64,000 nt of DNA, taken from the NCBI GenBank assembly GCA_046292385.1, contig JBKBRF010000023.1:1-64000 (forward strand), read 5' to 3'. Shown here piece by piece: positions 3,378-61,129 of the stretch. Below the pieces are notes generated by a model. The model did not search any database. It was not told the origin of the DNA and was given only the letters and a program-made list of their open reading frames with translations. The position numbers were made by a program, and so were the translations under genes. The number at the start of each line of letters is the position of its first letter. Position 1 is the stretch's first letter. Origin of the DNA: Armatimonadota bacterium (GTDB lineage Bacteria; Armatimonadota; SYMT01).

Positions 3378-3557
3378 CTTTTCGTTTCCTATTCAGTTCG
3401 GCGATGGCGTTCGTCGCGGTAACCGGAGTTGACGGCCGGTTGCGGTTAGCAGTGTGCCCCGCTGGCGCGGGGCGCGAAAGCAAGCATTCGCACTCCACAG
3501 GCTAGCCCGGAAGAGATTCCCTCTCGTCGAAAGGGAGACTGCCTCGGGGCAGTCTGT

Positions 3558-3582
3558 GGAGTGCGGTGGCTTGCCACCGCTT
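3558..3582. repeat. REP-like palindrome GGAGTGCGGTGGCTTGCCACCGCTT
   Basis: GCGGTGGC/GCCACCGC hairpin with GGAGT foot in an intergenic region. Confidence 0.5.
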
Positions 3583-6062: not shown

Positions 6063-6869
6063 TCATTCACCGTAACTGAACCTGGCGATGCGGTAACCGT
6101 CTTCGTGCTCGGTGATCCACAGGTTGCCGGGGCTGCCCGTCCCGCCGGCTTCGTTTCGGATCCAGAACCCGTACACCATCGCCCGGCGGCAGTCTTTAGG
6201 CACGTAGCGCGGCCAGATGATCCGGCCCACTTCGGCATTGTTCCGGGCCTCCTGATCGGGAAAGATCCAGTTGAACCCGTAGAATTGAAAGCGGACCGCG
6301 GCCCCGCCGAATTGCTCCGCGGCGCGCTCTTGCTCGTGGATGAAGTGGGAGAGCGTCATCCACTCCTTGAGCTCCGGCGACGCCAGCGCGTAGGCCGCCC
6401 CCCAGTCTTTCGAGAGAATCGCGTCGCGATATCGCTTCACCACGTCTACCGCACGCTCGAAGATGAGGGGCAGGTTCTCGGGGCTCCCGAGATAGCGGAT
6501 GCTGTGCTCTTCGATCTCTTCGCTGCCGGGCCACCCTTCGGCGGAGGTGTAGTGGTCGATGAAGCGGGGCGGATAGATCACGTCGTTCAGGCTTCGAAAG
6601 GCCTCGTTGAACTCCTCGGCAAGCTCCTCCTGGCCGGGCCACGGTTCCCGGAGCCCGTCGGAGAAAACCCGACTGCGAAGGGCCAGGTAGGCGCGGTCGG
6701 ACGCGTTCTTCACGGCACTCTGCAGGAGTTTCAGGGTCGGCTTTTCCGTGTGGAAGCGCTCCCGAAAGGCTGCGAGCGGCTGAACCTCCGGCGCCATCCC
6801 GAGGCGATGACCCACCCCGATCACCCTCTCCAGCGCGGCCACTACCACTTGCGGATCTGGTCTCGGCAT
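6063..6869 (-). CDS. Hypothetical protein
   Basis: 268 aa protein-like ORF with AGGAG RBS. Confidence 0.65.
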   Translation of the reverse strand: MPRPDPQVVVAALERVIGVGHRLGMAPEVQPLAAFRERFHTEKPTLKLLQSAVKNASDRAYLALRSRVFSDGLREPWPGQEELAEEFNEAFRSLNDVIYPPRFIDHYTSAEGWPGSEEIEEHSIRYLGSPENLPLIFERAVDVVKRYRDAILSKDWGAAYALASPELKEWMTLSHFIHEQERAAEQFGGAAVRFQFYGFNWIFPDQEARNNAEVGRIIWPRYVPKDCRRAMVYGFWIRNEAGGTGSPGNLWITEHEDGYRIARFSYGE

Positions 6870-6928
6870 CGATTCTCCTGGTGCGTGGCTTCAGGGAGTC
6901 CCGAGCGCTCGCCGAACCCTACCCGTTG

Positions 6929-8329
6929 TCAGGCGAACAGCTCGTCCACCGGGCGGAAGCCGACGTACTTCGTCCCGGAGGCCGGCTCCACGTAGTGGAA
7001 GGCGCGGCCTGAGGGGGTGTTCTGGATCGTCTTGCTCCAGTCGATGCCGAGCGCGGAATAGAGCGTGCAGGCGATGTCTTCCATGTAGACCGGGCGGCTG
7101 CCGGACCAGCCCGGGTCGACGATCTTTCCGCCCAGCTCGTCGGTCTTGCCGATCACGCCACCGCGCCGGATGCCGCCTCCCGCGAGCAGGCCGGAATGGC
7201 AGTGGATGTAGTGCTCCCGGCCCTGGCGGGTGGCGCTGATCGTCCCGGGCGTGCGGCCGAACTCGCTCATCGCTACGATCAGGGTCTCGTCGAGCAGCGA
7301 CTTGCCGGGGGTGTGGCGGGAAGGAGTGCTCTCCAGGTCGCGGATCAGGCTGGAGAGCGCCGCGTCGAGCTCGCGGATCAGCACGGGATGGCTGCGGGTC
7401 TGGTCTTTGTAAATGTCGCCGTGGTGGTCCCAGCCGCCGTGGCTCGCCAGCACGAAGCGGGTGCCGGCGTCGGCACGAAACAGATTCCGCGCCAGCACCA
7501 GGGAGTTGCCGATCGAGGTGGCACCGTAGCGCCGGCGGTCTTCGTCGGACACGGAGAAGATCTCGGCGACCCGCGGATCGTTCATGATCGCCCACGCGCT
7601 CCGGTAGTACTCGTGGTAATCCGCAAAGCTGCGGTCCAGCTCCGGGCTGCCGCCGCGCAGCACGCCGTCGAGCTGCTGCAGCCGCTCCCACCGGCGCCGC
7701 ATCGCCGCCGCCTCTCCCTGCTCGGGCGCCAGCTTCGGCGGTCCGCCCCCGCCCACGTCGAGGCTCAGCGGCCCGAACTCCGCGGAGAGAAAGCCGTTGT
7801 TGATCAACCCGGCCTGGTTGCCGGCCATGTTCATCGCGATGTAGGCCGGAAGGGAGTCGGACGGCTTGCGGCTCTTTGCCAGCTCGTGGCAGACCACCGC
7901 GCCGATGGCGGGCACCTCCCGCGCCAGCGCCAGGTTGAGCGGGTGGCCGGTCTGGATGTAGTACTGCGCGCGGCCGTGGACCGCGTCCCACGCCGCCATG
8001 GAGCGGACCACCGTCACGCGGTCCATGAGCCCCGCCAGGTTCGGCATCAGGCCGTACGGCAGCTTCAGCTCGTTCCCACAGGGGCGGATGTCGAAGTAGT
8101 CGGGCGTCCACGGGCCTTCCTTCGCGTCGAGGGTGTCGACCTGGCTCATGCCGCCGTCGATGTTCAGGAAGAGCACCTGGCGCGCCGTGCCCCTCGGCTC
8201 CGCCTTTTCCGCGGCGCGCACCTGCCGCGGCTGGAACGCGCCGAGGAAGCCGCCGACCACGTTCACGCCGGCCACCTGAAGCAGGCGGCGCCGGGTCATG
8301 CAGAGCAGGTTGCGGTCGGTAGGTGTCAT
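6929..8329 (-). CDS. DUF1501 family Tat-exported protein
   Basis: TRRRLL Tat motif, GGMSQVDTLD, GGWDHH, SEFGRTP motifs. Confidence 0.9.
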   Translation of the reverse strand: MTPTDRNLLCMTRRRLLQVAGVNVVGGFLGAFQPRQVRAAEKAEPRGTARQVLFLNIDGGMSQVDTLDAKEGPWTPDYFDIRPCGNELKLPYGLMPNLAGLMDRVTVVRSMAAWDAVHGRAQYYIQTGHPLNLALAREVPAIGAVVCHELAKSRKPSDSLPAYIAMNMAGNQAGLINNGFLSAEFGPLSLDVGGGGPPKLAPEQGEAAAMRRRWERLQQLDGVLRGGSPELDRSFADYHEYYRSAWAIMNDPRVAEIFSVSDEDRRRYGATSIGNSLVLARNLFRADAGTRFVLASHGGWDHHGDIYKDQTRSHPVLIRELDAALSSLIRDLESTPSRHTPGKSLLDETLIVAMSEFGRTPGTISATRQGREHYIHCHSGLLAGGGIRRGGVIGKTDELGGKIVDPGWSGSRPVYMEDIACTLYSALGIDWSKTIQNTPSGRAFHYVEPASGTKYVGFRPVDELFA

Positions 8330-8340
8330 CGCTTCCGGTC

Positions 8341-10218
8341 TCAGTAGTTGAAGACGAAGTCGAGCTTGTTGAGCAGGGTCCACGCCAGGTCTTCCGCGCC
8401 CTCGCGGCGGTCGGTCTCCAACCAGGAAACGGCGACCTGCTTCTCCGCCGCCGTCGGCGGGCGGGAGAGGACCGCCAGGTAGAGCGCTTCGACAACTTCG
8501 GGGTTCGACATCTCGGAGCGGACCAGCCGCGCGACCCGGCTCTCCCCCTCCGCCTTGACGCGCCGGGTCACGAACGGGCTGTTCATCAGCGCCATCGCCT
8601 GCAGGATCGACCCCTCCGGCTGGCGGTCGCCCTGCTCCCGGTTCGACTGTCCGAAGGTGCGCAGGAACGCCCTCGCCTGGCCGTCGTTGATCTCCTCCGG
8701 AGTCGGCGCTTCGGTGCAGAACCGGAGCGGCGGCAGCTCCGTGCCGTAGACCATGTCTCGCCGCGGGTAGTTGCCGAAGACCCCCGTCGCCTGCGAGATC
8801 GCGTCGTGCGCCTGCTCCGCGGTGAGCCGCCGCACGTAGTGGCGCGCGAAGAACGGCGTGTAGCGGTCCTTCCACTCCCCCGGGAACCGGGAGGAGAGCT
8901 GGTACGCGCTGGACCGGCAGATCGTCCGCATCAGGTGCTTCAACCGGTAGCCGCTGACGGTGAAGTCCCGGGCCAGCGCGTTCAGCAGCGCGGGGTGGGT
9001 CGGCTGGACCGTCCACGGCGCGGAGGGCGGGCTCTTTGGGTCCTGCCGAGCCAGGTCGAACGAGTCGACCGGGTCGACGATCCCCAGGCCGAAGAACTGC
9101 TTCCAGACCAGGTTCACCGTCGCGCGGGCGAACTGCGGATGGCGCGTCAGCATCCGCGCGAGCTGCGGGCGCAGCGGCTTCTCCGGGTCCGCCTTCTCTC
9201 CGGTGAGGATAAAGGTCGGCTCCACCGGGTTGCCGCGGCGCTGCAGCCGGACCGAGCTGGCGGAATTGGTGTCGTAGCCGCTGCCGTCGTCCGTGATGGT
9301 GAAGCGGTCCTGAAACGGCACGATCCGCACGCGCGTCTTGCCGAAGAACGCCGCCATCGCCCAGAGGTCGGACCGCCGCTGCGGCACCAGCCCCAGGTTC
9401 ACCTTCTCCAGGAACCCGCGGCCGTCGTGGCAGGAGATGCACTGGTAGTTGAGTCCCAGGAAGAGGCGCCCGGATTGGACCACGATCTCGTCCGCCGTAT
9501 CCTCGTGGCGGTTGGAATACATCGTGTCGCCGGCGACGTGCCAACGCGCCAGGAAACCGCCCGGCGCCGCGTCCGGCATCCAGACGCTGTTCGGCGCGGA
9601 GGCGGTGAGCATCTCCGTCACCATCCGGTCGTACGGCCGGTCGGCCCGCAGGGAGGCGCGGATCCACTGGTCGAAGTGCTTGGTGGTGGGGTTGCCGATC
9701 CGGTTGGCGCAGTTCCGCACCAGGTCGCCGTACCAGTAGCTCCAGTGGTCCACCCAGGCGGGGCTGGCGAGCAGCTCGTCGATCAGGCGGTTCCGCTTGT
9801 CCGGTGCGCGCTCGTTCACGAAGGCGAGCAGCCGCTCCGGCGCCGGGATGCGGCCGGTCAGGTCGAGGTGCACCCGGCGGCAGAACTCGTAGTCGTCCGA
9901 GAGCGGCGCGTGCGGCACCCCCGCCTCCGCCATCGCGCCGAAGAGGTGCCGGTCGATCAGGTTGCGGTAGGCGAGCTCTCCGCTGCCCGCCGCACCCGGC
10001 GGGAGGCGGTCTGCCACCTCTCGCGTCAGGTCGCTCACCTGCTTGTCCGGACGCAGCGTCTTCAGCTTCTCCGGCGCGTGCTCCTCCGGAAACGGCTTCG
10101 CCGGCGCGGCGGTGCCGGAGGCGGCGGCGAGCCCGGCCACCGCGGCGAGCAGGAGCGCGCCGCCCAGCACGTGCCGGCGTCCCGTGAAAGCCAGGTTGGA
10201 GGACTGCCGTCCGCTCAT
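8341..10218 (-). CDS. DUF1549/DUF1553 domain protein
   Basis: RRVHLDLTGRIP, QCISCHD, FARATVNLVWKQFFGLGIVDPVD, QAMALMN, EDLAWTLLN motifs. Confidence 0.9.
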   Translation of the reverse strand: MSGRQSSNLAFTGRRHVLGGALLLAAVAGLAAASGTAAPAKPFPEEHAPEKLKTLRPDKQVSDLTREVADRLPPGAAGSGELAYRNLIDRHLFGAMAEAGVPHAPLSDDYEFCRRVHLDLTGRIPAPERLLAFVNERAPDKRNRLIDELLASPAWVDHWSYWYGDLVRNCANRIGNPTTKHFDQWIRASLRADRPYDRMVTEMLTASAPNSVWMPDAAPGGFLARWHVAGDTMYSNRHEDTADEIVVQSGRLFLGLNYQCISCHDGRGFLEKVNLGLVPQRRSDLWAMAAFFGKTRVRIVPFQDRFTITDDGSGYDTNSASSVRLQRRGNPVEPTFILTGEKADPEKPLRPQLARMLTRHPQFARATVNLVWKQFFGLGIVDPVDSFDLARQDPKSPPSAPWTVQPTHPALLNALARDFTVSGYRLKHLMRTICRSSAYQLSSRFPGEWKDRYTPFFARHYVRRLTAEQAHDAISQATGVFGNYPRRDMVYGTELPPLRFCTEAPTPEEINDGQARAFLRTFGQSNREQGDRQPEGSILQAMALMNSPFVTRRVKAEGESRVARLVRSEMSNPEVVEALYLAVLSRPPTAAEKQVAVSWLETDRREGAEDLAWTLLNKLDFVFNY

Positions 10219-11339
10219 CGTCCGTTCCCCTCCGCGCGGTTCCGCGGACCCTCGGGGCCGATCACCGTCTCGATGCGGCCCGTGGGGTCGATCCGGCGCA
10301 CCCGGCGCCCCGGGCGGTCCGCCACGTAGAGGCTGCCGTCCGGACCGAGCGCGATCTTCTGCGGCGCGTAGAGCGAGGCCGCGGCCGCGGCTCCCCCATC
10401 GCCGGAGGCGGCGGCGGTCCCGTTCCCCGCGATCGTCTCGATCACCCCGTGAGAGACCCGGCGGAGACGATGGTTTCCGGTGTCGGCGATGAAGAGGTCG
10501 AGCGAAGGGCCGACCTCCACGTCCGCGGCCGCGAAGAGCTTCGCCTTCTCCGCCGGCCCGCCGTCGCCCGCGAACCCCGCGCCCGCGGTCCCGGAGCCGG
10601 GACCGGTCCCCGCCACCGTCTCCATCGTGCCGTCCGGCTTCACCCGGCGGACGCGGTTGTTGCCGGAGTCGCTGATATAGACGCTGCCGTCCGGCGCCAC
10701 CGCCACCCCGGTCGGCAGGCTGATCTGCGCGCGGACCGCGGGGCCGCCGTCGCCTGCCAGCCCCGCCTCGGTGCCGGCGAAGGTGGAGATCCGCCCCTGG
10801 GGATCGACACGCCGCACCACGTGGTTGTAGGTGTCCGCGATGTAGAGCGTTCCGTCGCTATCGACGGCCAGCCCCTGCGGGCTGTTGAGCGTAGCCCGGA
10901 CAGCCGGCCCGCCGTCCCCGGAGTAGCCGTCGCGTCCGGTCCCCGCGACGGTGGCGATGACGCCTCGCCGATCGATCCGGCGTATGCGGTGGTTGTAGCT
11001 GTCCGCGACGAAGAGGCTGCCCCCGGCGTCGAGCGCCACGTCGTGGGGAGCGTGCAGCCGCGCCTTCACGGCGGGGCCGCCGTCGCCGCCGAAGCCGCCC
11101 TCCCCCGTGCCGGCTGCGACCGCCAGAAGCCCTCCCCGCTCCAGCTTCAGCAGGCGGTGCGTGCCGAGGTCGGTCACGTAGAGCGCGCCGTCGTCGTCGA
11201 CCGCCACTCCGTTCGGCTGCTCCAGCCGGAGCGACCCCGCGGCTGCGGACGGGGCTGCGGGGAGCGCCGCGCCGAGGCCCGCCGCCACTGCAGGTATAGC
11301 GATGAGCGCGATGGCCGCACGACGTGCGATTCGAGGCAT
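10215..11339 (-). CDS. Secreted NHL-repeat beta-propeller protein
   Basis: Signal peptide; repeated GDGGPA...P.GVAVD.DG.LYIAD..NHRIRR units. Confidence 0.9.
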   Translation of the reverse strand: MPRIARRAAIALIAIPAVAAGLGAALPAAPSAAAGSLRLEQPNGVAVDDDGALYVTDLGTHRLLKLERGGLLAVAAGTGEGGFGGDGGPAVKARLHAPHDVALDAGGSLFVADSYNHRIRRIDRRGVIATVAGTGRDGYSGDGGPAVRATLNSPQGLAVDSDGTLYIADTYNHVVRRVDPQGRISTFAGTEAGLAGDGGPAVRAQISLPTGVAVAPDGSVYISDSGNNRVRRVKPDGTMETVAGTGPGSGTAGAGFAGDGGPAEKAKLFAAADVEVGPSLDLFIADTGNHRLRRVSHGVIETIAGNGTAAASGDGGAAAAASLYAPQKIALGPDGSLYVADRPGRRVRRIDPTGRIETVIGPEGPRNRAEGNGR

Positions 11340-11435
11340 AGGGACCGCTCCAGACCCGCCGGGACTGCAGATCGAAGGCAGGCGACGGTAACCAGTTAAG
11401 ACGTGAGGCCGGCGATCCCTTCGCCGCGGGACGGT

Positions 11436-12584
11436 CTATCTCCCCCCGGACGACCGCCGCGACTCCGCGTCGACCGCCGCCCTGGCGACCAGGTAGGTCG
11501 CAATTCCTACGACGAGACCGGCGGCGAGAGGAACCGCACGGGAGCGGCGCCGGGAGCGGCCTGCCAGGTGGGCGGCGCCCGCGGCCGCCCCGCCCGCGAG
11601 GAGCGCCAGGGTGACCGGCGGAAGCTGCCGCGCCACCTCCGCGGGGTCGAGCAGCCCGTGCGCGGGCTCGGAGCCGGCCGGGTGGCCGACCAGGCCGAGC
11701 GATCCCGGCTCGACGCGGACTTCCAGGCGGGTGGTGCTCTCGACCTCGTTCCCGTCCACCTGGACCGGCTGCGGGAGCTCGGTTTCGATGGTGATCTCCC
11801 GTCCCCGGTAGACCTCCAGGAAGTCGCGCCGCTGCGGTCTTCCGAGCAGCGCGTCGAGCGCCATCAGCGCCAGCTCGCGGGGGGTCCGCGCCCGCAGGAT
11901 CGCCACTTCCAACAAGCCGTCGGCCGGATCGGCGCCCGGGACCAGCTCCACCCCACCCGTGATCCGGCCGAGGTTCGCTACCAGCACCGTCTGCGCGTGG
12001 CGGCGCACGGAGCGGCCGTCGATGGTGATCCGGTACTCCGCCCGGGCGCGGCGGCGGTTCTTCCACGCCGCGATGAAGTAGGCGAGCGGCCCGAACCGGC
12101 TCTTCAGCTCCCGGTCCGCGTCCCGGATCATCCGCGCGTCGGCGCCCATGCCCGCCATGATCAGGAACGCGTGTCCGTTGGCGCGCCCGACGTCGATCCG
12201 CCGCACGGGACCGGTCAGGGCCAGGCGCATCGCTTCCTCGGCGTCGGTCGGCAGGCCCAGGTTCACCGCCAGCAGGTTGCCGGTGCCCCCGGGGATCACC
12301 GCCAGCGCGGCGTCCGTGCCCGCCACTACCCCCGCGGCCTCCATCACGGAGCCGTCGCCGCCGCAGACGATCACCCGCTCCATGCGGTCGCGCAGCGCGG
12401 CCTCCGCCAGCGGCGCCGCCCCGGCCAGCTCTTCCGTCTCCTGCAGCTCGCAGGGTAGCCCCGCCGCGCGCGCGAGCGACTCGACGCGGGCGCGCCGCGT
12501 CTCCAGGGTCTCCGTCCCGGACGCGGGGTTGAAGATCACCGCAACGCGCTCCAGGTTACAGCTCGATTCGAGCAGCTCCGGCAT
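11436..12584 (-). CDS. Diacylglycerol/lipid kinase family protein (YegS/DagK-like)
   Basis: FNPASG, CGGDGS, PGGTGNLLA, GMGADA, QVDGNE motifs. Confidence 0.9.
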   Translation of the reverse strand: MPELLESSCNLERVAVIFNPASGTETLETRRARVESLARAAGLPCELQETEELAGAAPLAEAALRDRMERVIVCGGDGSVMEAAGVVAGTDAALAVIPGGTGNLLAVNLGLPTDAEEAMRLALTGPVRRIDVGRANGHAFLIMAGMGADARMIRDADRELKSRFGPLAYFIAAWKNRRRARAEYRITIDGRSVRRHAQTVLVANLGRITGGVELVPGADPADGLLEVAILRARTPRELALMALDALLGRPQRRDFLEVYRGREITIETELPQPVQVDGNEVESTTRLEVRVEPGSLGLVGHPAGSEPAHGLLDPAEVARQLPPVTLALLAGGAAAGAAHLAGRSRRRSRAVPLAAGLVVGIATYLVARAAVDAESRRSSGGR

Positions 12585-12837
12585 CGAACTCTCCGGCCGC
12601 CGCCGGCGCGGCCTGCGCCATCCAGGGACGAAAGCGCTCTCTTGCTTCCGACGCACTACCCTTTTGCTACCCACGCGCGCGCGCCGTCACTCCCTAGACG
12701 CTCCCGACCCCACCCCCACCGCCACCTCGGCTCTCCGCCTTCCAGGGTTCCACGCCGCTGGATTCCTGCTGACTAGCGCGACGCAGCCTGCTAGAGTCGG
12801 GGGGCCGGTCTTTTCAGTTCGTTGACCCACAGTCCAT

Positions 12838-13497
12838 ATGCCCCGCATCATCGACCTTACCCTCCCCCTCCGGCACGGGATGCGCGGGGTGGCGTTCGAG
12901 ACAGCCACCACGCTCGAGCGGGACGGCTGGAACACACGGACGCTGCACCTCTACTCCCACGCGGGGACGCACGTCGACGCGCAGACCCACTTCGCGGCGG
13001 GACCGGGGACCATCGACGCGCTTCCGCTGGAGCGCTGCGCCGGCTGGGCGTGGGTGGTCGACCTGCGCCACCTCCCGGACCGCGCGTCGATCTCGACCGC
13101 CGATCTCGGCGGCGTGGCTCAGCGCTTCGGTGCCGGGGAGTCGCTCCTGCTGCGGACCGGGTGGTCGCGTCACGTAGACGAACCCCAGCGCTATCGCTCG
13201 GCGTTCCCCCGCATCTCGGAGGAGCTGGCGCGCTGGTGCGTCGAGCGCAGGGTCAACGTCCTGGGAGTAGAGTCGCCCAGCGTGGCCGACGTGCACAACC
13301 GCGAGGAAGTCACGTTGATCCACCGCTTGCTGCTCGAAGGAGGCGTTACGATCGTCGAGGGGCTGACGGGGCTGGAGGCGCTCACGCAGGAGCGGGTCTA
13401 CTTCGTCGCCGCGCCGCTCAAGATCGCCGGCGGGGACGGCGCCCCGTGCCGCGCCTTCGCGCTGGAGGGGATCGTGCCGGAGTCGGCCCTCCCGTGA
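12838..13497 (+). CDS. Cyclase family protein (kynurenine formamidase-like)
   Basis: HAGTHVDAQTHF (HxGTHxDAxxH), LLLRTGW, GGDGAPCRA. Confidence 0.9.
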   Translation: MPRIIDLTLPLRHGMRGVAFETATTLERDGWNTRTLHLYSHAGTHVDAQTHFAAGPGTIDALPLERCAGWAWVVDLRHLPDRASISTADLGGVAQRFGAGESLLLRTGWSRHVDEPQRYRSAFPRISEELARWCVERRVNVLGVESPSVADVHNREEVTLIHRLLLEGGVTIVEGLTGLEALTQERVYFVAAPLKIAGGDGAPCRAFALEGIVPESALP

Positions 13498-13547
13498 TCC
13501 TCCCGCGCGGCCGCGGGGGGAGGCGCCCCGCGCGCCGGTCCGAAGGC

Positions 13548-14324
13548 CTACCGTCGTTCGGCGTCGGGATGCGACGGAAGCTTGCGCCGCTCGCCGCCGT
13601 TGTCCGGCGGCAGTCCGGGAAGGTAGAACGGACAGCCGCTCCGCTGGTAAGCCCGGTATTGCTCCCCGTGCTCCGCCTCCAGGCGTGCCTCCTCGTGGCG
13701 GGAGCCGAGGAAGAAGTAGCAGGTCGCCACGGCATTGAAGGCGGCGAGGCGGGTCGTCATCCGCGGTGACAGCCAGAGCAGCGGCACGGGGGCGAAGTTC
13801 AGCGGGTGGCGGCTCCAGCGGAACGGGCCGGTGATCCGGAGCGCGCCGTCTTCGCCGGGCGCGGGTCCCTGCCCCTCCGGCGGCGGACGGACCTCGTCTT
13901 CGCCGGAGAGCCATACCGCCAGGCTCCGGAGGCCGCTCAGCTCTCCCATGCCGGCGGAAACCGCCGCCCAGGCGGTATAGCCCAGCGCCGCAGCCTGGCC
14001 TGCCCGCATCGCCCCGGCGAGCGGGCCGCGCACGCGGTAGAGCTCCCGATCGGGCTGGCGGCGGGCGCAGCTCCAGAGCGCCCCCAGGGAGAGCAGCGTC
14101 TGGCCGTTGTAGAGGATCCGGTAGAGACCCGCGTGACGGCGCTCCCCCAGGAGCTGCGCCGACTTCTGCTTGGCCGGCCGCGACGCCAGCGCGCTGTGGA
14201 GCAGCGCGAACGCCAGGGTGGCCCCCGCCACCCGCGCGGCGCCGGCGGCAGCCTCACCCCAGGATGCCTCTCGCGCACTCACCGGAGGGCTTGCGGCCTC
14301 CGTCACCGTCTCGAGGTCTGTCAC
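13548..14324 (-). CDS. Membrane methyltransferase family protein (ICMT/NnrU/MddA-like)
   Basis: FALLHS, TGPFRWSRHP, EEARL..EHGEQYRAYQ motifs with TM segments. Confidence 0.75.
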   Translation of the reverse strand: MTDLETVTEAASPPVSAREASWGEAAAGAARVAGATLAFALLHSALASRPAKQKSAQLLGERRHAGLYRILYNGQTLLSLGALWSCARRQPDRELYRVRGPLAGAMRAGQAAALGYTAWAAVSAGMGELSGLRSLAVWLSGEDEVRPPPEGQGPAPGEDGALRITGPFRWSRHPLNFAPVPLLWLSPRMTTRLAAFNAVATCYFFLGSRHEEARLEAEHGEQYRAYQRSGCPFYLPGLPPDNGGERRKLPSHPDAERR

Positions 14325-14420
14325 CGCTGGTCGTCAGAACCCGGGTCGTCGCCGCCGGAGCGGCCGCCAGCGCCGGGGCTCAGGGCCAGGACTCGCCACC
14401 GGGTCCCGGCCCCCCCGCCG

Positions 14421-14675
14421 TTAGCGCGTGCCTCCATAGAGGTCGCTCGTCATCTGTACCCGCTGCTCCGGGCAGAGGTGCTGCGGCCGGAAGTCTTCCA
14501 GGTTCAGCAGCAGACGCCCGCGCGCCTCGTAGTCGAGGTGCCGGTCCACCAGGCGGCACAGCCGGTCCGCCTTCGCCACCTGCTCATCCCAGTCCGGGAC
14601 CACGTGGAGCGGCAGCTCCTCGGTCTCTACGGTGGGGTGATGCAGCGTCTTTCGCTCCAGGTGATCCGTATACAT
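14421..14675 (-). CDS. Small hypothetical protein
   Basis: 84 aa ORF with GAGGA RBS. Confidence 0.55.
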   Translation of the reverse strand: MYTDHLERKTLHHPTVETEELPLHVVPDWDEQVAKADRLCRLVDRHLDYEARGRLLLNLEDFRPQHLCPEQRVQMTSDLYGGTR

Positions 14676-14941
14676 CGCTTTTCCTCTTCCTAACTCTCCA
14701 GATCCCGCTCTCTGCCGGCACTACGGGGGTGCCCCTGGGCGGGTCCCGCCCACCGGCGGGCTTGTGCCTTCACTAGTCGCTTACCCGGCCAGGTCCGGAG
14801 CCACACAACCGAATTGAGGGGCCGGCGGGGTGGCCGGTGTCGATCCCGGCGCGTAGCCGGCGGGGCGGCGCGGGTAGAGACAACCGGTGCGGCCGGGAGA
14901 GCGCCCGGCATGCAGTGAAGCCTCGCGAGGAGAGCAGCCGA

Positions 14942-27443: not shown

Positions 27444-29123
27444 ATGCCTTTCGGCACTTCCCGTGCCCAGCGCCTCCGCGAAGCACTGCAACGCCCCACT
27501 CCGCTGCTGGTTGCCGGCGCCCACAACCCGCTCAGCGCCCGGCTGGTCGAAGAGGCCGGGTTCGACGCCATCTGGGCGAGCGGGTTCGAGATCTCCGCCA
27601 GCCAGGGCGTTCCCGACGCCAACATCCTCACCTTTAGCGAGAACCTGGAGATCGCCCGCGGCATCGCCCGCGCCAGCTCGCTGCCGGTCATTGCGGACTG
27701 CGACAGCGGCTTCGGCAACGCGATCAACGTCGTCCGGACGGTGCGGGAGTACGAAGACGCCGGCATCGCCGGCATCTGCCTGGAAGACAACATCTTTCCG
27801 AAGCGCTGCAGCTTCTACAGCGGCTCGCGGCGGGAGCTGGTCTCTCCGGAGGAGCACGCGGGCAAGATCCGCGCCGCCAAGGGCGCCCAGCGGGATCCGG
27901 ACACCTTCATCATCGCCCGCACGGAGGCGCTCATCGCCGGCTGGGGCGAGGCGGAGGCCCTCCACCGCGCCCGGATGTACGCCGACGCCGGCGCGGACGG
28001 CGTGCTGATCCACTCGAAGTCGAAGACGCTCGACGAGCTCGCCCACGCGGCGAAGCAGTGGGACCGGGATACCCCGCTGGTGATCGTCCCGACGATCTTC
28101 CCGGAAGCAAGCGCCGACCAGTGCTACGCGGCCGGCTTCAGGATCGTGATCTTCGCCAACCACGGGCTCCGCTCCGCGATCAAGGCGATGCAGGAGACGC
28201 TGGGCGAGCTGCGGCGGAGCGCGTGCATCGCGGCGGTGCAGGACCGGCTGGTGCCGCTGAAGGAGGTTTACCGGCTGGTCGGCGTGGACGAGATGAACCG
28301 CCAGGAGGCGGAGTACCTTCCGGCCGGGGGCGAGAAGACGACGGCGGTGATCATCGCGGCCGGGTTCGAGCCGGAGATGCTCCCGCTCACCAAAGACCGC
28401 CCGAAGGCGCTGCTCGACATCAAGGGCAAGACGATCCTGGAGCGCCAGATCGAGTTGCTGAACTCGTGCGGGGTCAAAGATATCGCCGTCGTCCGCGGCT
28501 ACAAGAAGGAGGCGTTCACGCTCACCACGCCGCGCTACTACGACAACGACGAGTACGAGCGGACCGGAGAGCTCTACTCCCTCTTCCAGGCGGAGCCGGA
28601 GTTGAACGGCCGCGTGGTGGTGCTCTACGGCGACGTGCTCTTCGATCAGGGCGTGCTGGAGAAGCTGCTGAAAGCGGAGGGTGACGTGAACGTGGTGGTC
28701 GACCGCGCCTGGCACGATCACCAGAGCAACGGCCACGCCCCGGCCCGCCCGCAGGAGGACCTGGTCGCTACCACGGCGCGCCGCCCGGCGGGATATCGTT
28801 ATCTGCCGGGGGAAAGCTCCGCGGAGGTGCTGCGGATCGGTCAGAAGCTGCCGCGCCAGGAGTGCGACGGCGAGTTCGCCGGGCTGATGATGCTCTCCCG
28901 CGAGGGGTGCATCGCGGTTCGGGAAGCGCTGCAGAGCGCCCGCGACCGGGGCTCGGACGCGCCGTACCACGAGGCGCCGGCGCTGACGCAGGCGAAGCTG
29001 ACCGACCTGCTCCAGGACCTGATCGACCGCGGTACCGGGGTGCGTGCCGTCGAGATCTACAAGGGCTGGTCGGAAGTCGACACCTTTGAGGACTACCAGC
29101 GCGCGTGGGCGGATCTCGCATAG
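27444..29123 (+). CDS. pepM: Phosphoenolpyruvate mutase-like enzyme fused to C-terminal nucleotidyltransferase (PntC-like)
   Basis: ICL/PEPM fold (GAHNPLSA, WASGF, DCDSGFG, EDNIFPKRCS, IARTEALIAG, IHSK, FANHG); C-terminal IIAAG..DRPKALL, VRGYK, YGD, EVDT; operon context with Ppd and AEP transaminase. Confidence 0.82.
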   Translation: MPFGTSRAQRLREALQRPTPLLVAGAHNPLSARLVEEAGFDAIWASGFEISASQGVPDANILTFSENLEIARGIARASSLPVIADCDSGFGNAINVVRTVREYEDAGIAGICLEDNIFPKRCSFYSGSRRELVSPEEHAGKIRAAKGAQRDPDTFIIARTEALIAGWGEAEALHRARMYADAGADGVLIHSKSKTLDELAHAAKQWDRDTPLVIVPTIFPEASADQCYAAGFRIVIFANHGLRSAIKAMQETLGELRRSACIAAVQDRLVPLKEVYRLVGVDEMNRQEAEYLPAGGEKTTAVIIAAGFEPEMLPLTKDRPKALLDIKGKTILERQIELLNSCGVKDIAVVRGYKKEAFTLTTPRYYDNDEYERTGELYSLFQAEPELNGRVVVLYGDVLFDQGVLEKLLKAEGDVNVVVDRAWHDHQSNGHAPARPQEDLVATTARRPAGYRYLPGESSAEVLRIGQKLPRQECDGEFAGLMMLSREGCIAVREALQSARDRGSDAPYHEAPALTQAKLTDLLQDLIDRGTGVRAVEIYKGWSEVDTFEDYQRAWADLA

Positions 29124-34681: not shown

Positions 34682-34804
34682 CGGAACCCGAGGCGTCCGG
34701 AGGCGCAGCCGGAGCGTGAGACGCTTGTCCCCCGCACGGGGGAGCCGCGGAGGGTAAACGCCGGGTGAGGGCCGACACCCGGCATCAGGGGGCGCAGGGG
34801 TCGG
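34682..34804 (+). ncRNA. Short, internally deleted copy A of an unassigned structured repeat/RNA
   Basis: Matches 52890-52918 and then 53103-53199 of copy B (e.g. GCTTGTCCCCCGcACGGGGG, GAGGGCcGA, GGGCGCaGGGGTCGG). Confidence 0.5.
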
Positions 34805-34917
34805 ACTCGCGATAACGGTACACCACCGTGAGAGACGGCAACCGACCTCGGCCGAAGGGCACGGGGTCGGCCCCGCGGTTTCAACGCTGCTCAACGACAA
34901 CCAAACCCCACCCCCTG

Positions 34918-50601: not shown

Positions 50602-52767
50602 CTACTTCCCGCGGAGAGCGGTGAGCGAGCCGTCCATTCCGGTCACGTAGACCACGCCGCCGGCCGGCACCGGGTCGGAGAAGACGTAGAGCCGCGGCGT
50701 CACCTGGTACTCCCAGAGCCGGCGCCCGTCCGCCGCGGCGAGCGCGACGATCCGTCCCGTCCCGCCGGCGGAGTAGACGATCCTGTCCTGCTCCGCCGGG
50801 GCGGAGGGGATGAAGCCGGTCCCCGCGGCCGCCGTCCAGAGTGGGGTGCCGTCGGCCGCCAGTTTGCGCAGGTTGCCGTCGGTGCCGCGCAGGTAGACCG
50901 CCGAGCCGTCCTCCGAGCGGGCGACGCTGGAGACCTTCTCCTGCTGCTCGCCCAGCGTGCCGGTCTCGGGGTCGAGGAGCGACAGGCGGTACATCCGGTC
51001 GGCGATCCAGACCCGGCGCCCGGCGACCACCGGCCCCGCGTCGGCCGGGCTGTAGTAGCGCGCCACCCCCGGCAGCGAGGCGGCGCTCCCGGCGCCCTTC
51101 GCCTTCCAGCGGATCTCGCCGGTGGCGGCGTCGAGCGCGTAGACGTGGCTGTCCCACGCGCCGTAGTAGAGCGTCCCCTGCTCCAGCCAGGGGCGGCTCT
51201 CGATCGAGTAGTCCGCCACGGCGCGCTCCCAGAGCTTCCGCCCGTCCGCTGCGGCCAGCGCGTAGACCCGGCCGTTGTTGGCGGCGAAGACGATGGTGTC
51301 GCCGACGGCGACCGCCGCGGAGTAGACCGGGTCGCCGACTTCGAACGACCAGCGCTGCCGCCCGCGGCGGTCGACCGCATAGAAGCGGCAGTCTCCCGAG
51401 CCGACGTAGAACGCGTCGCCGTGCGCCAGCGGCTGCGCCAGGATCTCGCCGCCGGTCCGGAAGAGCCACCGGCGCTTTCCGCTCTCCCGGCTGAAGGCGT
51501 AGAGGCCGCCATCGCCCGCGCCGGCGACCACCAGGTCTCCCGCTGCCGCCGGAGAGCCTTTGCCGGAGCCGCCCATCCGCGCGCGCCAGAGGACTCGCTT
51601 CTCCGGCGCCTCTACGTAAAAGCGAGTGGTGCGCTGGAGCTCCTCGCCGTCTTTCGCGCGGAAGGTGACCCGCAGGTAGTGACAGCCCGGCTCCCACGCG
51701 GAGGTATCCACGCTCGCGCGCCACTCGCGCCGGTCCCGCTGCAGCGTGCCGGTCCGTCCTTCCACGTCGTCCGCCTGCCAGGTCGCCGACTCCAGGTCGT
51801 CCCGGTCGATCCGGACCCGCAGCGTCGTCAGGCCGGCCTCGACGTTCGCCGAGTCGCGCGGCGCCTGGAACGTGATGCGGGGATAGCGACTCGCCTTCCG
51901 CAGGGGACGCTCCAGCAGCGGCTGGCGCGGCGCCGGCTCCCAGGCCCGGCGGTAGGCGACCCGCAGCACGCCGTCCTTTACGGAGACGACCGAGTAGCCC
52001 GGCGCATTCCCGAAGGTGCTGCCGCCCATCACCTGGTCCACCCCGGCCACCACCCGGTGCTGCGCCGCGTGGCCGTGACCCACCAGGATCAGCGCCACGT
52101 TGTAGGGGCGGAGCAGGTCGAGCAGCCGGTCGCGCTCGTAGAGCGAGGCGAGCTCGTTACTGTCGATCGGGTGATGGCAGAAGAGGAAGATCGGGGTGCT
52201 GCGGGAGACCCGCTTCAGGTCCTCCTTCAGCCAGCGGATCCCCTCTTCCCCGAACGACGGGCGCGGATCCTGCGGCGTGGCGGAGTCCCACCCGATGAAG
52301 TGACAGCCGTGCGCGTCGAAGGAGTAGTAGGGCGAGCCATGCAGCTTCCGGATCTCGTGGCGCTGGCAAGCCCAGGTGGAGTCGTGGTTGCCGGACTGGT
52401 GGTAGACCGGGAACGGCGCCCCCTTCCAGAGGTCGAGATACTGCTGCCACCAGCCCGAAAGCCCGCCGAACTCGGTGAGGTCGCCGGTCGCAATGGCGAA
52501 CGACGGCGCCGGGACCTCCACCCCGTAGCCCGGCAGCGAGATCGGCTGCGTCAGCGTCTTGATCTGCGCGATCACCTCGGTCGAGCCGAACTGCCGCTCC
52601 GGGTCCGGCCCCGTCCTGCGCGTGACACCCGGTGGGACGTGGACGTCGCTGCAGTGGATGAAGCTGAAGTCCCCCGGCCCGCCGGGCTCCGCCGCGGAGA
52701 CGAGAGAGACGAGCGTCGACGCCGCCAGCACAGCGGCGAGAGTGGTGAGCGCGCGGAGGAATCGCAT
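50602..52767 (-). CDS. Secreted metallophosphoesterase with C-terminal PQQ-like beta-propeller
   Basis: SDVH, TGDLTE, GNHD, HHP, GHGH; BamB-like repeats. Confidence 0.88.
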   Translation of the reverse strand: MRFLRALTTLAAVLAASTLVSLVSAAEPGGPGDFSFIHCSDVHVPPGVTRRTGPDPERQFGSTEVIAQIKTLTQPISLPGYGVEVPAPSFAIATGDLTEFGGLSGWWQQYLDLWKGAPFPVYHQSGNHDSTWACQRHEIRKLHGSPYYSFDAHGCHFIGWDSATPQDPRPSFGEEGIRWLKEDLKRVSRSTPIFLFCHHPIDSNELASLYERDRLLDLLRPYNVALILVGHGHAAQHRVVAGVDQVMGGSTFGNAPGYSVVSVKDGVLRVAYRRAWEPAPRQPLLERPLRKASRYPRITFQAPRDSANVEAGLTTLRVRIDRDDLESATWQADDVEGRTGTLQRDRREWRASVDTSAWEPGCHYLRVTFRAKDGEELQRTTRFYVEAPEKRVLWRARMGGSGKGSPAAAGDLVVAGAGDGGLYAFSRESGKRRWLFRTGGEILAQPLAHGDAFYVGSGDCRFYAVDRRGRQRWSFEVGDPVYSAAVAVGDTIVFAANNGRVYALAAADGRKLWERAVADYSIESRPWLEQGTLYYGAWDSHVYALDAATGEIRWKAKGAGSAASLPGVARYYSPADAGPVVAGRRVWIADRMYRLSLLDPETGTLGEQQEKVSSVARSEDGSAVYLRGTDGNLRKLAADGTPLWTAAAGTGFIPSAPAEQDRIVYSAGGTGRIVALAAADGRRLWEYQVTPRLYVFSDPVPAGGVVYVTGMDGSLTALRGK

Positions 52768-52889
52768 GGGGTTTCCGGGAGAGAGCTCGCTGGGCCGGCA
52801 AACGGCCGCACCCGTTCACTCTCCACCCCCGGACCGCAGGGCTCCTCCCTGCGGCTTCAGAACCCCGCCACAGACGTACACGCCACCGC

Positions 52890-53240
52890 CGGAACCCGGG
52901 CGTCCGGAGGCGCTGCCGCAGGCAGAGCCGGAGGGCGGCATTTGTGACCACCCGTTGGCGGAGGGGTGGTCGCTCGAAGGTTTACCACCCGTACGGGTGG
53001 GTCGGGAATCAGCCCGTGAGCTCCGCTCCTGTGGGGGTAGGGCGGAGTGGCGCGGGAAGAGCCTATCGGAGCGCACTCCCGGAGCGGCCCGCTAACGGAG
53101 CGAAGCGGAGTGTGAAAGGCTTGTCCCCCGAACGGGGGGGGCCGGCGGAGGGCCCACGTCGCGGGAGGGCTGATTCCCGACACAAGGGCGCGGGGTCGGG
53201 GCGACGGTCTCGAGGCCGGTCACCGGAAGAAGGGCGAGAC
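52890..53240 (+). ncRNA. Candidate structured non-coding RNA, full copy B (family unassigned)
   Basis: Perfect 15-bp stem 53001-53015/53167-53181 enclosing several hairpins; G-U pairs favour + strand; homologous to 60775-61016 and 34682-34804. Confidence 0.65.
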
Positions 53241-53519
53241 TTACGACCCGGTAAGCTCCGCCAGTCGCGCCTGGAGTCCCTCCGCGTCGAGGCCGGTGAT
53301 CCGGAAGCGCTTGTCGCGAGACTTCTCGCCGCCGATCAGCTCCACGTCCGCCCGCTTCACGCCCAGCACGTCGGCGAGGAAGTCGCGGCACGCGCGGTTG
53401 GCGGCCCCCTCGACGGGCGGGGCCGTGAGACGGATCGCGAGGACGCCCTCCCGCCAGCCGACTACCTCGCTCTTCGACGCGCGCGGCTGCACCCGGACTC
53501 GCAGCTCCGTCTGGCGCAT
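53241..53519 (-). CDS. DUF167/YggU family protein
   Basis: VRVQPRAS, TAPPVEGAAN, GEKSRDK. Confidence 0.9.
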   Translation of the reverse strand: MRQTELRVRVQPRASKSEVVGWREGVLAIRLTAPPVEGAANRACRDFLADVLGVKRADVELIGGEKSRDKRFRITGLDAEGLQARLAELTGS

Positions 53520-53896
53520 CAGCCGAACAGCAGGTGGCGATAGAACTCGACGACCCGGCCCGAGTGCGCGAAGACGCCGGCCACGTAGCCGACCAGGTAG
53601 CAGACGATGACCCAGCGCATCACCTTGGTGATCAGGACCGGGTTGCGGGGCCGGTACCACTCCGCGGCGATGACGGCGGGCACGAACGTCACCATCTTGG
53701 CGACGATGAACGGCACCGTTCCCATCTCCAGAAACCGCACCAGGACCGGGTTGCCTTCCCAGGCGATTCCCTGCCAGACCCAGTAGAGGGTGGTGATGAG
53801 ATCCGCGAGGCAGATAAAGGTGATCAGCGTCCCTTCCCCGCTGACGGTACGGTGGAGGAGGGGTTTTCCAGTAGGTCCGAGGGAAGTCGCTTCCAT
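53519..53896 (-). CDS. DUF5658-like membrane protein
   Basis: ADLITT, EGNP, F..K motif with TM helices. Confidence 0.65.
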   Translation of the reverse strand: MEATSLGPTGKPLLHRTVSGEGTLITFICLADLITTLYWVWQGIAWEGNPVLVRFLEMGTVPFIVAKMVTFVPAVIAAEWYRPRNPVLITKVMRWVIVCYLVGYVAGVFAHSGRVVEFYRHLLFG

Positions 53897-53988
53897 GCAC
53901 TGCGTCCTGCCGCCCGCTGCGGCTTCCGTGCCGCCGGGCGCTGATGGGGAAGGCTACAGGAGTAGTATTCCAGATTATCGCCGATTCG

Positions 53989-60675: not shown

Positions 60676-60774
60676 CCGCTCGACATCTGTCGAATCCGAG
60701 CGCGGGAAGGCAGCAACCGGAGGGGACACTGGGTAAAGGCAACTCCTGGCGAGATCGTCATCTCACCGGGGTTC

Positions 60775-61016
60775 CACCCCCCGCCCTCCCCGAACGGAGC
60801 GGCCCTCCCGCGTGATCGGCCCTCCCGCAGTCCTTTCACGCTCCGGCTTCGCCTTCGCTAGCGGACTGCTCCGGGCGTGCGCCCCGGCAGGCCGCGCTCC
60901 GCGACCGAGAGCTGCGTCGCAAACCGTCACTGCGAATCACGGGCCGCGCCGTCCGGCTCAAGCGAGGCCCCCGCGCTTGGGGCCTCACAAGGGGACCCCT
61001 CCGCCTCCGCCTCCGG
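60775..61016 (-). ncRNA. Candidate structured non-coding RNA, copy C (family unassigned)
   Basis: Minus strand has the same motif order as copy B (TTGTGA-hairpin-TCGCT, GCCCGTGA, GCGCAC.CCCGGAGC, GCGAAGC.GGAG.GTGAAAGG, CGCGGGAGGGC) with different but pairing stems. Confidence 0.65.
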
Positions 61017-61090
61017 GCTCCGCAGGTACCCACGCGCGGCGACCGCGGCGCAATCATCGCGTGACGAGTAGAGTCCCCCGGCAGGGAATA

Positions 61091-61129
61091 CAAAACGGCC
61101 CCGGATCGCAGCTCTCGATCCGGGGCCGT
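61091..61129 (-). terminator. Intrinsic terminator downstream of the Gfo/Idh/MocA gene
   Basis: 14-bp perfect stem ACGGCCCCGGATCG/CGATCCGGGGCCGT followed by a short T run on the minus strand. Confidence 0.65.

Follow-up and report, generated by a model that had tools for sequence, protein, structure and literature searches.

What occupies a 750-nt gap between two minus-strand genes in the first 64 kb of contig C23 of an Armatimonadota genome (this whole stretch is called the window below) is the question that the locus raises. An earlier inspection of the letters (the sequence-only reading) had placed there one of three copies of a structured element, and an independently transcribed RNA, a ribozyme-like RNA and a non-autonomous mobile element were offered as its possible nature. 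The sequence, copy B (52894..53218, plus strand), is one copy of a high-copy, lineage-restricted, non-coding interspersed repeat. Its unit is composed of two small 5′ hairpins, a hairpin termed H1, a 15-bp stem that encloses a core of several helices and conserved motifs of unpaired bases, and a 3′ tail that is conserved as well. Units are of two subtypes, T1 and T2, and are found singly or paired head to head as T2/T1 doublets. The best overall reading is that of a non-autonomous mobile repeat in which the fold of a single strand is what selection keeps, this strand probably acting as single-stranded DNA, and we would give it a probability of roughly 0.5; its broader content, a mobile interspersed repeat selected to fold as a single strand, is highly probable.

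The repeat family in the genome

The genome (G000) amounts to 7.04 Mb in 91 contigs, with a G+C content of 69% and a completeness of 98.45%, and gene calls throughout were made with a crude open reading frame (ORF) filter based on the G+C content of third codon positions (GC3). A profile of 294 positions, built from 73 full-length matches after BLAST, gave 152 nhmmer matches below E 1e-3, 134 of which cover at least 200 of the 294 model positions, and a covariance model of the 181-position core (R1) gave 139 matches, so the scale of the family, ~139 copies, had been underestimated when three were counted. The unit is ~290 nt long and non-coding, and the family makes up ~0.5% of the genome. Median pairwise identity over match columns is 67% (5-95% range, 58-81%), the closest pair of copies being 95.5% identical; the core is best conserved, and the ends are modular and heterogeneous. 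All copies are intergenic, in the sense that they lie in gaps between the GC3-based gene calls. Eighty copies stand alone, and 52 form 26 head-to-head doublets. Typed by a single diagnostic column, all 24 typable doublets consist of one T1 and one T2 unit, and the solos include 41 T1 and 28 T2 units.

The orientation of the copies to neighbouring genes is random, and the types of intergenic region that host them follow the genome background. The gene upstream of the 80 solos runs in the same direction in 39 cases and in the opposite direction in 35 (it is missing in 6), while the downstream gene runs in the same direction in 34 and in the opposite direction in 46. Host regions comprise 29 convergent, 25 divergent and 52 tandem gaps, against 614, 703 and 1750 in the genome. 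No gene family recurs beside the copies, the largest cluster among 203 flanking proteins having 2 members. A riboswitch or cis-regulatory leader, which the sequence-only reading had also disfavoured, is therefore rejected on the count of downstream genes and the lack of a recurrent flanking family.

Local clustering is seen on some contigs, e.g., ~21 copies within 124 kb of C8. At C40:13665-40016, eight units share one strand, and the first five follow each other regularly at ~3.5 kb; an integron-like or cassette array was considered for this region and rejected because the intervening genes run both ways. The genome is unusually rich in distinct interspersed repeat families. An unrelated ~130-bp repeat lies at C51 (~28570-28710) and at ~100 other loci, with 72-92% identity.

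Anatomy of copy B and other copies in the window

Forty of the 124 near-full copies, mutually <80% identical, were aligned (alignment A1), and the aligned copies mentioned below are these. The features of copy B, its flanking genes and the other copies in the window are as follows.

52894..53218, plus strand: copy B, whole repeat unit, subtype T1, solo (nhmmer E 4.4e-64, model positions 5-287 of 294)
52997-53199, plus strand: covariance-model core match of copy B (136 bits)
52913..52939, plus strand: 5′ module of two small hairpins, CTGCC-GCA-GGCAG then GCCG-GAGGG-CGGC (from the sequence)
52942..52974, plus strand: hairpin H1 with TTGTGA and TCGCT flanks (TTGTGA-CCACCC/GGGTGG-TCGCT), a 12-bp helix
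52980..53000, plus strand: extra hairpin, present in only 2 of the 40 aligned copies (L040, L072)
53001..53015, plus strand: P1, 5′ arm of the 15-bp closing stem (from the sequence and the plus-strand minimum-energy fold)
53021..53047, plus strand: P2, a variable hairpin, CTCCGCTC/GGGCGGAG in copy B, whose sequence and length vary between copies
53084..53146, plus strand: P4 (GCGGCC with GGCCG-GC; covariation) around hairpin P5, the GTGAAAGG motif and an inserted hairpin
53120-53139, plus strand: the copy-specific inserted hairpin inside P4, in copy B alone among the 40 aligned
53160..53170, plus strand: conserved motif CGCGGGAGGGC, continuing into P1, in 108 of 124 copies and kept in the G005 and G006 copies
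53167..53181, plus strand: P1, 3′ arm (from the sequence, fold and covariation)
53182..53218, plus strand: conserved 3′ tail, ACAAGGGCGCGGGGTCGG plus the following bases; conservation runs past the stem to about model position 290
50602-52767, minus strand: gene for a PQQ/BamB-like beta-propeller protein with a metallophosphatase domain, flanking copy B
53519-53896, minus strand: gene for a DUF5658 protein, flanking copy B
60752..61016, minus strand: copy C, T2-like, solo (nhmmer E 1e-30; covariance model 60773-60959 at 123 bits)
34702..34819, plus strand: partial copy limited to the 3′ part (nhmmer E 4.8e-5, model positions 191-283)

The long stem described by eye, with arms at 53001-53015 and 53167-53181, proved exact and is present in the plus-strand minimum-energy fold; the TTGTGA-CCACCC/GGGTGG-TCGCT hairpin said to precede it was found in place at 52942-52974, and the second copy noticed on the minus strand was recovered by nhmmer (61016-60752). 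The inner helices fared unequally. GCGGCC/GGCCGC (P4) stood, with both sides changed in 5 of 5 pairs, and three that had been listed by eye fell: the CGCACTCC/GGAGTGTG helix is paired in only 77.7% of cells, two of its positions being unpaired in 26 and 19 of the 40 copies, and GAGCCT/AGGCTT and CCCCG/CGGGG rest on a 21-nt insertion that copy B alone carries among the 40.

Both extra hairpins of copy B are inserted at loop positions, and the other bearer of that at 52980-53000 among the aligned copies is C18:61312-61507. The first hairpin of the 5′ module has a C-GNA-G triloop; copies in the related genome G005 have hairpins of different sequence at this position. The partial copy is probably the third one (copy A) of the sequence-only reading. 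Between the end of copy B and the DUF5658 gene lie ~300 nt (53219-53518), and an overlapping 219-aa ORF (53241-53900) fails the GC3 coding test.

Covariation and the folded strand

A scan of column pairs over the 124 near-full copies detected three helices with several pair types per position, H1 (12 bp), P1 (15 bp) and P4 (7 bp). Seven pairs of H1 covary, and 11 or 12 of its 12 pairs are kept in 112 of 124 copies; P1 shows up to 5 pair types per position and 58 distinct outer arms, and at least 13 of its 15 pairs are kept in 112 copies. In alignment A1, P1, P4 and P5 together are paired in 95.3% of cells, and both sides have changed in 17 of the 25 pairs, including 11 of 15 in P1. The covariation score of this structure in A1 is 0.503, compared with 0.184 for shuffles, none of 500 of which reached the observed value, and 0.05-0.14 for slid partners. 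An outside set of 24 distinct copies, taken from two other genomes and two metagenome contigs, is paired in 89.5% of cells versus 73.1% in shuffles, in an alignment fitted to the covariance model, which favours structure, and 13 of its 15 P1 pairs have changed on both sides. The earlier claim that the stems differ between copies and still pair is thus borne out in both sets.

The sequence-only reading had also assigned the fold to the plus strand at copy B from G-U wobbles. Over the 124 copies, the G-U and A-C counts are 75 and 11 in P1, 156 and 14 in H1, where the G-U pairs are partly inherited conserved wobbles, and 9 and 11 in P4. Because G-U exceeds A-C in P1 and H1, one strand is the folded one, in agreement with that assignment. 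Single-sequence z-scores (−2.92 for the plus and −3.91 for the minus strand) give no discrimination between the strands. Hairpins of variable length and copy-specific insertions are accommodated in loops and leave the core undisturbed, and copies from three genera retain the multi-helix junction and the strongly conserved motifs of unpaired bases in it. It is one strand whose fold is under selection, as RNA or as single-stranded DNA.

The loops bear on which of the two it might be. The apex of P5 is a C-GNA-G triloop in 74 of 96 scored copies (GAA 43, GCA 22, GGA 8, GTA 1), as counted with a simple hairpin finder that mis-scored ~20 P5 cases, and a C-GNA-G triloop with varying N is present in the 5′ hairpin in 25 of 29 scored copies, the search pattern having caught only 29 of the 124. 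In DNA, d(GNA) loops with a C-G closing pair are reported to give mini-hairpins of exceptional stability (PMC3201870). The RNA versions of the tested mini-hairpins are described as considerably less stable, and mini-hairpins of the same loop type are found in primase-recognised single-strand origins and replication signals (PMC13037366).

Distribution among genomes and metagenomes

Outside G000, the covariance model, which the sequence-only reading had proposed to build and search with, detected the family in two of six other genomes of the same bacterial family, G005 (14 matches) and G006 (6), which represent two other genera. It gave no match in the other four members, including G001, which belongs to the same genus as G006, or in any of 144 genomes of other Armatimonadota families. 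A BLAST search with copy B found nothing in 40 relatives, and only the covariance model reached the other genera. Head-to-head doublets recur in G005.

A strict motif pattern found no stretch in genome contigs, and it was evidently too strict because it also missed G005. A looser pattern, applied to one genome per species (185,579 species), returned the G005 record and one Acidobacteriota stretch (L103), and over metagenome contigs it returned two true members (102 and 106 bits) and one false one (L101); L103 and L101 were discarded, since the covariance model rejects both (at most 8.4 bits). The family is lineage-restricted and patchy inside one bacterial family.

No known Rfam family matches, in line with the failure of the sequence-only reading to place the element by eye. 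A scan of the whole window against Rfam 15 gave no match at gathering score, a permissive scan of 52750-53300 (E ≤10) gave two noise matches (E 2.4 and 9) outside the element, and a scan of 11 other copies at E ≤1 gave none. A limited literature search found no description of an Armatimonadota repeat or of a multicopy structured mobile RNA, and, on that search, the repeat family is undescribed.

Insertion sites and ends

The sites of the family are not shared between genera. Among 17 proteins that neighbour elements in G005 or G006 and have a homologue in G000, none lies within 1.5 kb of an element in both genomes, and no synteny of sites was found; a G005 doublet that adjoins a NIF3 gene, for example, has no counterpart between the adjacent G000 orthologues on C55. 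A 671-nt contig from soil run X3 of another study matches the window up to 60677, continues with 24 other letters and resumes at 61095. By joining 60677 to 61095, this contig indicates a strain without the 417 bp that hold copy C, with the caveat that soil reads were placed at 88% likeness. A contig of another run spans the 5′ junction of copy B.

The ends are best defined in one subfamily of about a dozen doublets, ~800 bp long and 77-88% mutually identical, which share sharp, asymmetric ends. Fourteen pairs of its left and right ends are spaced 401-890 bp apart. The ~400-bp derivatives have lost the T1 unit and kept both ends, as one would expect of an element whose requirements in cis lie in its ends. 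The left end begins with CACAG at 20 of 26 junctions, 7 of the 26 lie within ACAGAGG-like 7-mer tracts, and the pentamer may therefore belong to the target, a suggestion that concerns one subfamily and is drawn from filled sites. At the right end, the last bases are CAGA in 14 of 16 cases. No terminal inverted repeat was recognised by eye at the ends of this subfamily, and other subfamilies have different, less well defined ends.

A flanking direct repeat of at least 30 bits was detected at 1 of 103 loci and at 0 of 103 controls, by a search that covered, for most copies, duplications of ~10 bp or longer. The one locus, the doublet at C8:6883-7682, is nested in a member of a different palindromic hairpin-repeat family, whose arms consist of tandem 7-8-base units, and is flanked by a 62-bp, 92%-identical direct duplication of this host repeat (C8:6815-6876 and 7681-7742). 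Because it is the only case among the 103 loci, it does not represent the rule, and long target duplications were rejected as a general feature. Pairing of flanks gave 17 candidate empty paralogous sites, mostly shared sub-modules, of which only the C8 locus was informative.

Candidate enzymes and linked elements

The sequence-only reading had suggested looking for copies next to a gene for a reverse transcriptase, an HUH (histidine-hydrophobe-histidine) enzyme, TnpB or IscB, and no such linkage was found. TnpB (PF07282, PF01385) gave no match in G000 with controls positive in 8 genomes each, and reverse transcriptase (PF00078, RVT_1) gave none with controls positive in 3 genomes. The IscB-type RRXRR domain (PF14239) and Y2_Tnp also gave none, but their control genomes were blank as well. 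No unit was seen beside an IscB or TnpB gene in three genomes. Y1_Tnp has five matches in G000; the carriers have 5, 9 and 6 matches and the non-carriers 4, 1, 1 and 0, and the higher counts in carriers are only suggestive. The flanks of the Y1_Tnp matches held no significant unit match except a partial 3′ fragment 2.4 kb from a weak match on C83, and among the matches listed for G005 and G006, none to Y1 is near one to the unit. Two Y1_Tnp genes, at C51:25843-26414 and C22:55627-56474, encode proteins of 145-149 aa and carry inverted hairpin repeats of their own; a 20-mer of the C22-type repeat recurs 17 times in the genome. These loci look like systems of repetitive extragenic palindromic (REP) sequences and REP-associated tyrosine transposases (RAYT) that are separate from the large repeat.

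An insertion sequence (IS) of the IS110 family is physically associated with the repeat. Its 362-aa DEDD_Tnp_IS110 ORF lies on C6 (~73890-75370), and ~50 short, internally deleted derivatives or solo ends are present, with one short copy in the window at 3454-3582. The element inserts exactly in the H1 loop and splits units into 5′ and 3′ halves: 6 junctions were seen directly, 10 half-units break at model positions 64-74, and ~35 contig ends lie in the element. This IS is site-specific, with the repeat serving as its landing pad. A small IS110 contig, C91, shares nothing with other contigs and has no link to the repeat. The idea that the repeat is a bridge RNA was dropped because, by eye, its conserved loops are not complementary to the doublet ends or the CACAG target.

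A further association was observed in G005. Locus L093 (G005:C3:824000-842000) contains, at 6500-14900, two type I-E-like CRISPR arrays (~7733-10490 and 12926-14850; 29-nt repeat, 61-bp period) that flank cas2 (10510-10974) and cas1 (11223-12173). Four minus-strand units, in a duplicated two-unit module, face the first repeats of the two arrays head-on, at the place of the leader. The link is confined to G005, and the CRISPR-like arrays of G000 (C28, C58) have no adjoining unit.

Discussion

An elaborate fold that is kept while its copies scatter between unrelated genes points to a jumping element rather than a fixed RNA gene. Among the three options of the sequence-only reading, a non-autonomous mobile element fits best, given the 134-139 copies, the patchy distribution, the absence of shared sites and the lack of copy C in one strain. 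In such an element, the folded strand would act as single-stranded DNA, and a structure-reading enzyme, e.g., an HUH/Y1 transposase of the IS200/IS605-RAYT kind, might recognise it and move it in trans. Mobility would then be retained only by copies that keep the fold, which would explain why the stems vary but always pair. The tilt toward folded single-stranded DNA comes from the C-GNA-G loops, the missing transcription signals at the two window copies and the random orientation, and a single-stranded DNA/HUH route as the means of movement is put forward tentatively.

A number of observations weigh against a mobile repeat read as single-stranded DNA. No transposase gene is linked to any copy, no matching pair of ends encloses a gene, and no Y1_Tnp gene lies within 2 kb of a full unit in G000. 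The two clear Y1 genes that were examined, those on C51 and C22, have hairpin repeats of another kind on either side, and the Y1 count is a weak correlate of carriage, as the non-carrier G002 has 4. Elements of the IS200/IS605 type usually show an orientation bias, but the orientation of the solos is not significantly associated with the sign of GC skew (18, 27, 21 and 14 in the four cells; Fisher p 0.11, with a skew that is weak in the draft assembly) or with the gene-strand bias (p 0.25). The left-end hairpin begins 2 nt after CACAG, a spacing that differs from those of IS608 and ISDra2. Identity between copies reaches 95.5% at most, and no very recent movement is therefore visible, although near-identical copies could be lost from a 91-contig assembly. 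A branched core with conserved unpaired bases, combined with heterogeneous ends, is a pattern more often shown by functional RNAs than by transposase substrates, and the argument from C-GNA-G loops draws on loop chemistry rather than on a test in this organism.

The last points lead to the possibility that the units are expressed structured RNAs carried on mobile DNA, which would serve as scaffold or guide for an unrecognised protein, much as HEARO/omega RNAs do for IscB, or process themselves, so that the fold would be selected as RNA. The junction with unpaired motifs kept across three genera, the restriction of variable-length hairpins and insertions to loops, the better conservation of the core than of the ends and the preference of wobble pairs for one strand would all suit such an RNA; head-to-head doublets could share a central divergent promoter, and the four G005 units head-on to the first CRISPR repeats lie where a leader promoter is expected. 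The independently transcribed RNA gene of the sequence-only reading, however, received no support from the two window copies, the only ones checked, at which neither a sigma-70-like promoter nor an intrinsic terminator was found, whereas the same terminator check does show a clear one for the neighbouring oxidoreductase gene (61129-61095). The 5′ module is made of G+C-rich hairpins, and sense read-through is not favoured by the upstream genes (39 same versus 35 opposite). TnpB and reverse transcriptase were not detected with positive controls, RRXRR gave no match with a blank control, the C-GNA-G triloop is the DNA-stable form, and Rfam offered no match at E ≤10 for the window copy or at E ≤1 for 11 others, all of which makes expression as RNA rather unlikely. 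It is quite unlikely that the branched core is the working part of a new nucleic-acid machine, i.e., an orphan scaffold or guide RNA or a folded single-stranded DNA for an unrecognised effector, or a self-processing element, that spread as heterotypic doublets and is targeted by the IS110-family element.

Recruitment by the host would give the repeat a role like that of REP sequences and bacterial interspersed mosaic elements (BIME), as protein-binding sites, stabilisers of mRNA ends, insulators or lagging-strand priming signals. The family is BIME-like in being extragenic and high-copy, in alternating two unit types with a set spacer (T1 plus T2 in 24 of 24) and in acting as an IS landing site, its fold is intact in nearly all copies, which fits selection in place, and its mini-hairpin loops are of the type reported from primase-recognised single-strand origins (PMC13037366). 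The family is absent, on the other hand, from four of six sister genomes, one of them a congener of a carrier, which makes a core cellular role unlikely; different genera do not have the same sites, strains differ at one site, and the copies follow no rule of position with respect to gene ends or intergenic type. We consider such recruitment improbable. A SINE-like (short interspersed nuclear element-like) retroelement, copied via RNA by a reverse transcriptase acting in trans, would share the strand-specific fold and the dispersed copies without a gene of their own, but no RVT_1 match occurs in a 98.45% complete genome while control genomes are positive, and there is neither an A-rich or other 3′ tail nor a target duplication of variable length, so that this origin is very improbable. 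A mobile repeat that is kept because one of its strands folds, probably in the form of single-stranded DNA, remains the preferred reading.

In behaviour, the family is closest to REP/BIME and to IS200/IS605-derived elements, but it is far larger and more complex. It resembles REP sequences, BIME and the REPIN-RAYT system (REPIN, REP doublets forming hairpins) in that an extragenic, high-copy, hairpin-forming repeat with inverted doublets of two unit types and a set spacer is targeted by a site-specific IS, is probably read as a folded single strand and lives in a genome with Y1_Tnp genes. The unit of ~290 nt (294-position model), with its multi-helix junction and conserved unpaired motifs, nevertheless contrasts with the 20-40-nt palindrome of REP, the arms of the doublets are only ~60-68% alike, and these units do not border any RAYT gene, as the Y1 genes that were inspected carry short repeats of their own. 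The doublet subfamily is comparable to the palindrome-associated transposable elements (PATE) derived from IS200/IS605 in that neither a terminal inverted repeat (by eye) nor a target duplication was found, the ends are sharp and asymmetric with hairpins near both, and internally deleted derivatives retain both ends; CACAG recurs at the left junction and may be a target sequence of the kind that such elements require. It differs in having no linked tnpA or tnpB (no TnpB was detected in the genome), no significant orientation bias with GC skew and no Y1 transposase whose own element bears these ends, and in that other subfamilies have different, ill-defined ends.

HEARO RNA is a large, covarying, multi-stem element with many dispersed copies, many of them without a neighbouring gene, and Rfam 15 includes a model for it. 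The repeat is like HEARO and the omega RNA of TnpB in being large, covarying, multi-stem, non-coding and dispersed in many copies that are often gene-less, but it has no Rfam match even at permissive thresholds, and neither the TnpB domain (controls positive) nor the IscB domain (PF14239, control blank) was detected in the genome. ERIC, Correia, BOX and comparable structured repeats resembling miniature inverted-repeat transposable elements (MITE) are likewise intergenic and lineage-specific; they fold strongly, are built of modules, some of them inserted, and form subfamilies. In contrast to them, the present copies show no terminal inverted repeats or target duplications, are much larger and more branched, and have diverged far more (median 67%) with the fold kept. 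A classical MITE moved by a DDE transposase should have terminal inverted repeats and a fixed-length target duplication, which were not found, and the doublet units, although inverted to each other, are only ~60-68% alike. Retrons, group II introns and SINE-like elements are set apart by the absence of a PF00078 match in a genome searched with positive controls. G4-type origins and ssiA of RSF1010 have branched single-strand folds with C-GNA-G mini-hairpins (PMC13037366), but those are single phage or plasmid sites, compared with ~139 chromosomal copies here.

Bacterial interspersed repeats are usually short palindromes, and in this family a branched unit of ~290 nt has its fold maintained by compensatory changes, with a median identity of only 67%. 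For annotation, this carries the warning that strong covariation alone does not make an RNA gene. The repeat also provides a defined natural target for an IS110-family recombinase, and its C-GNA-G loops allow the question to be raised whether folded DNA, and not RNA, is the target of selection. With more than 150 diverged copies, the family constitutes a natural set from which it may be learned what a structure-reading mobilisation enzyme, or an RNA partner, recognises.

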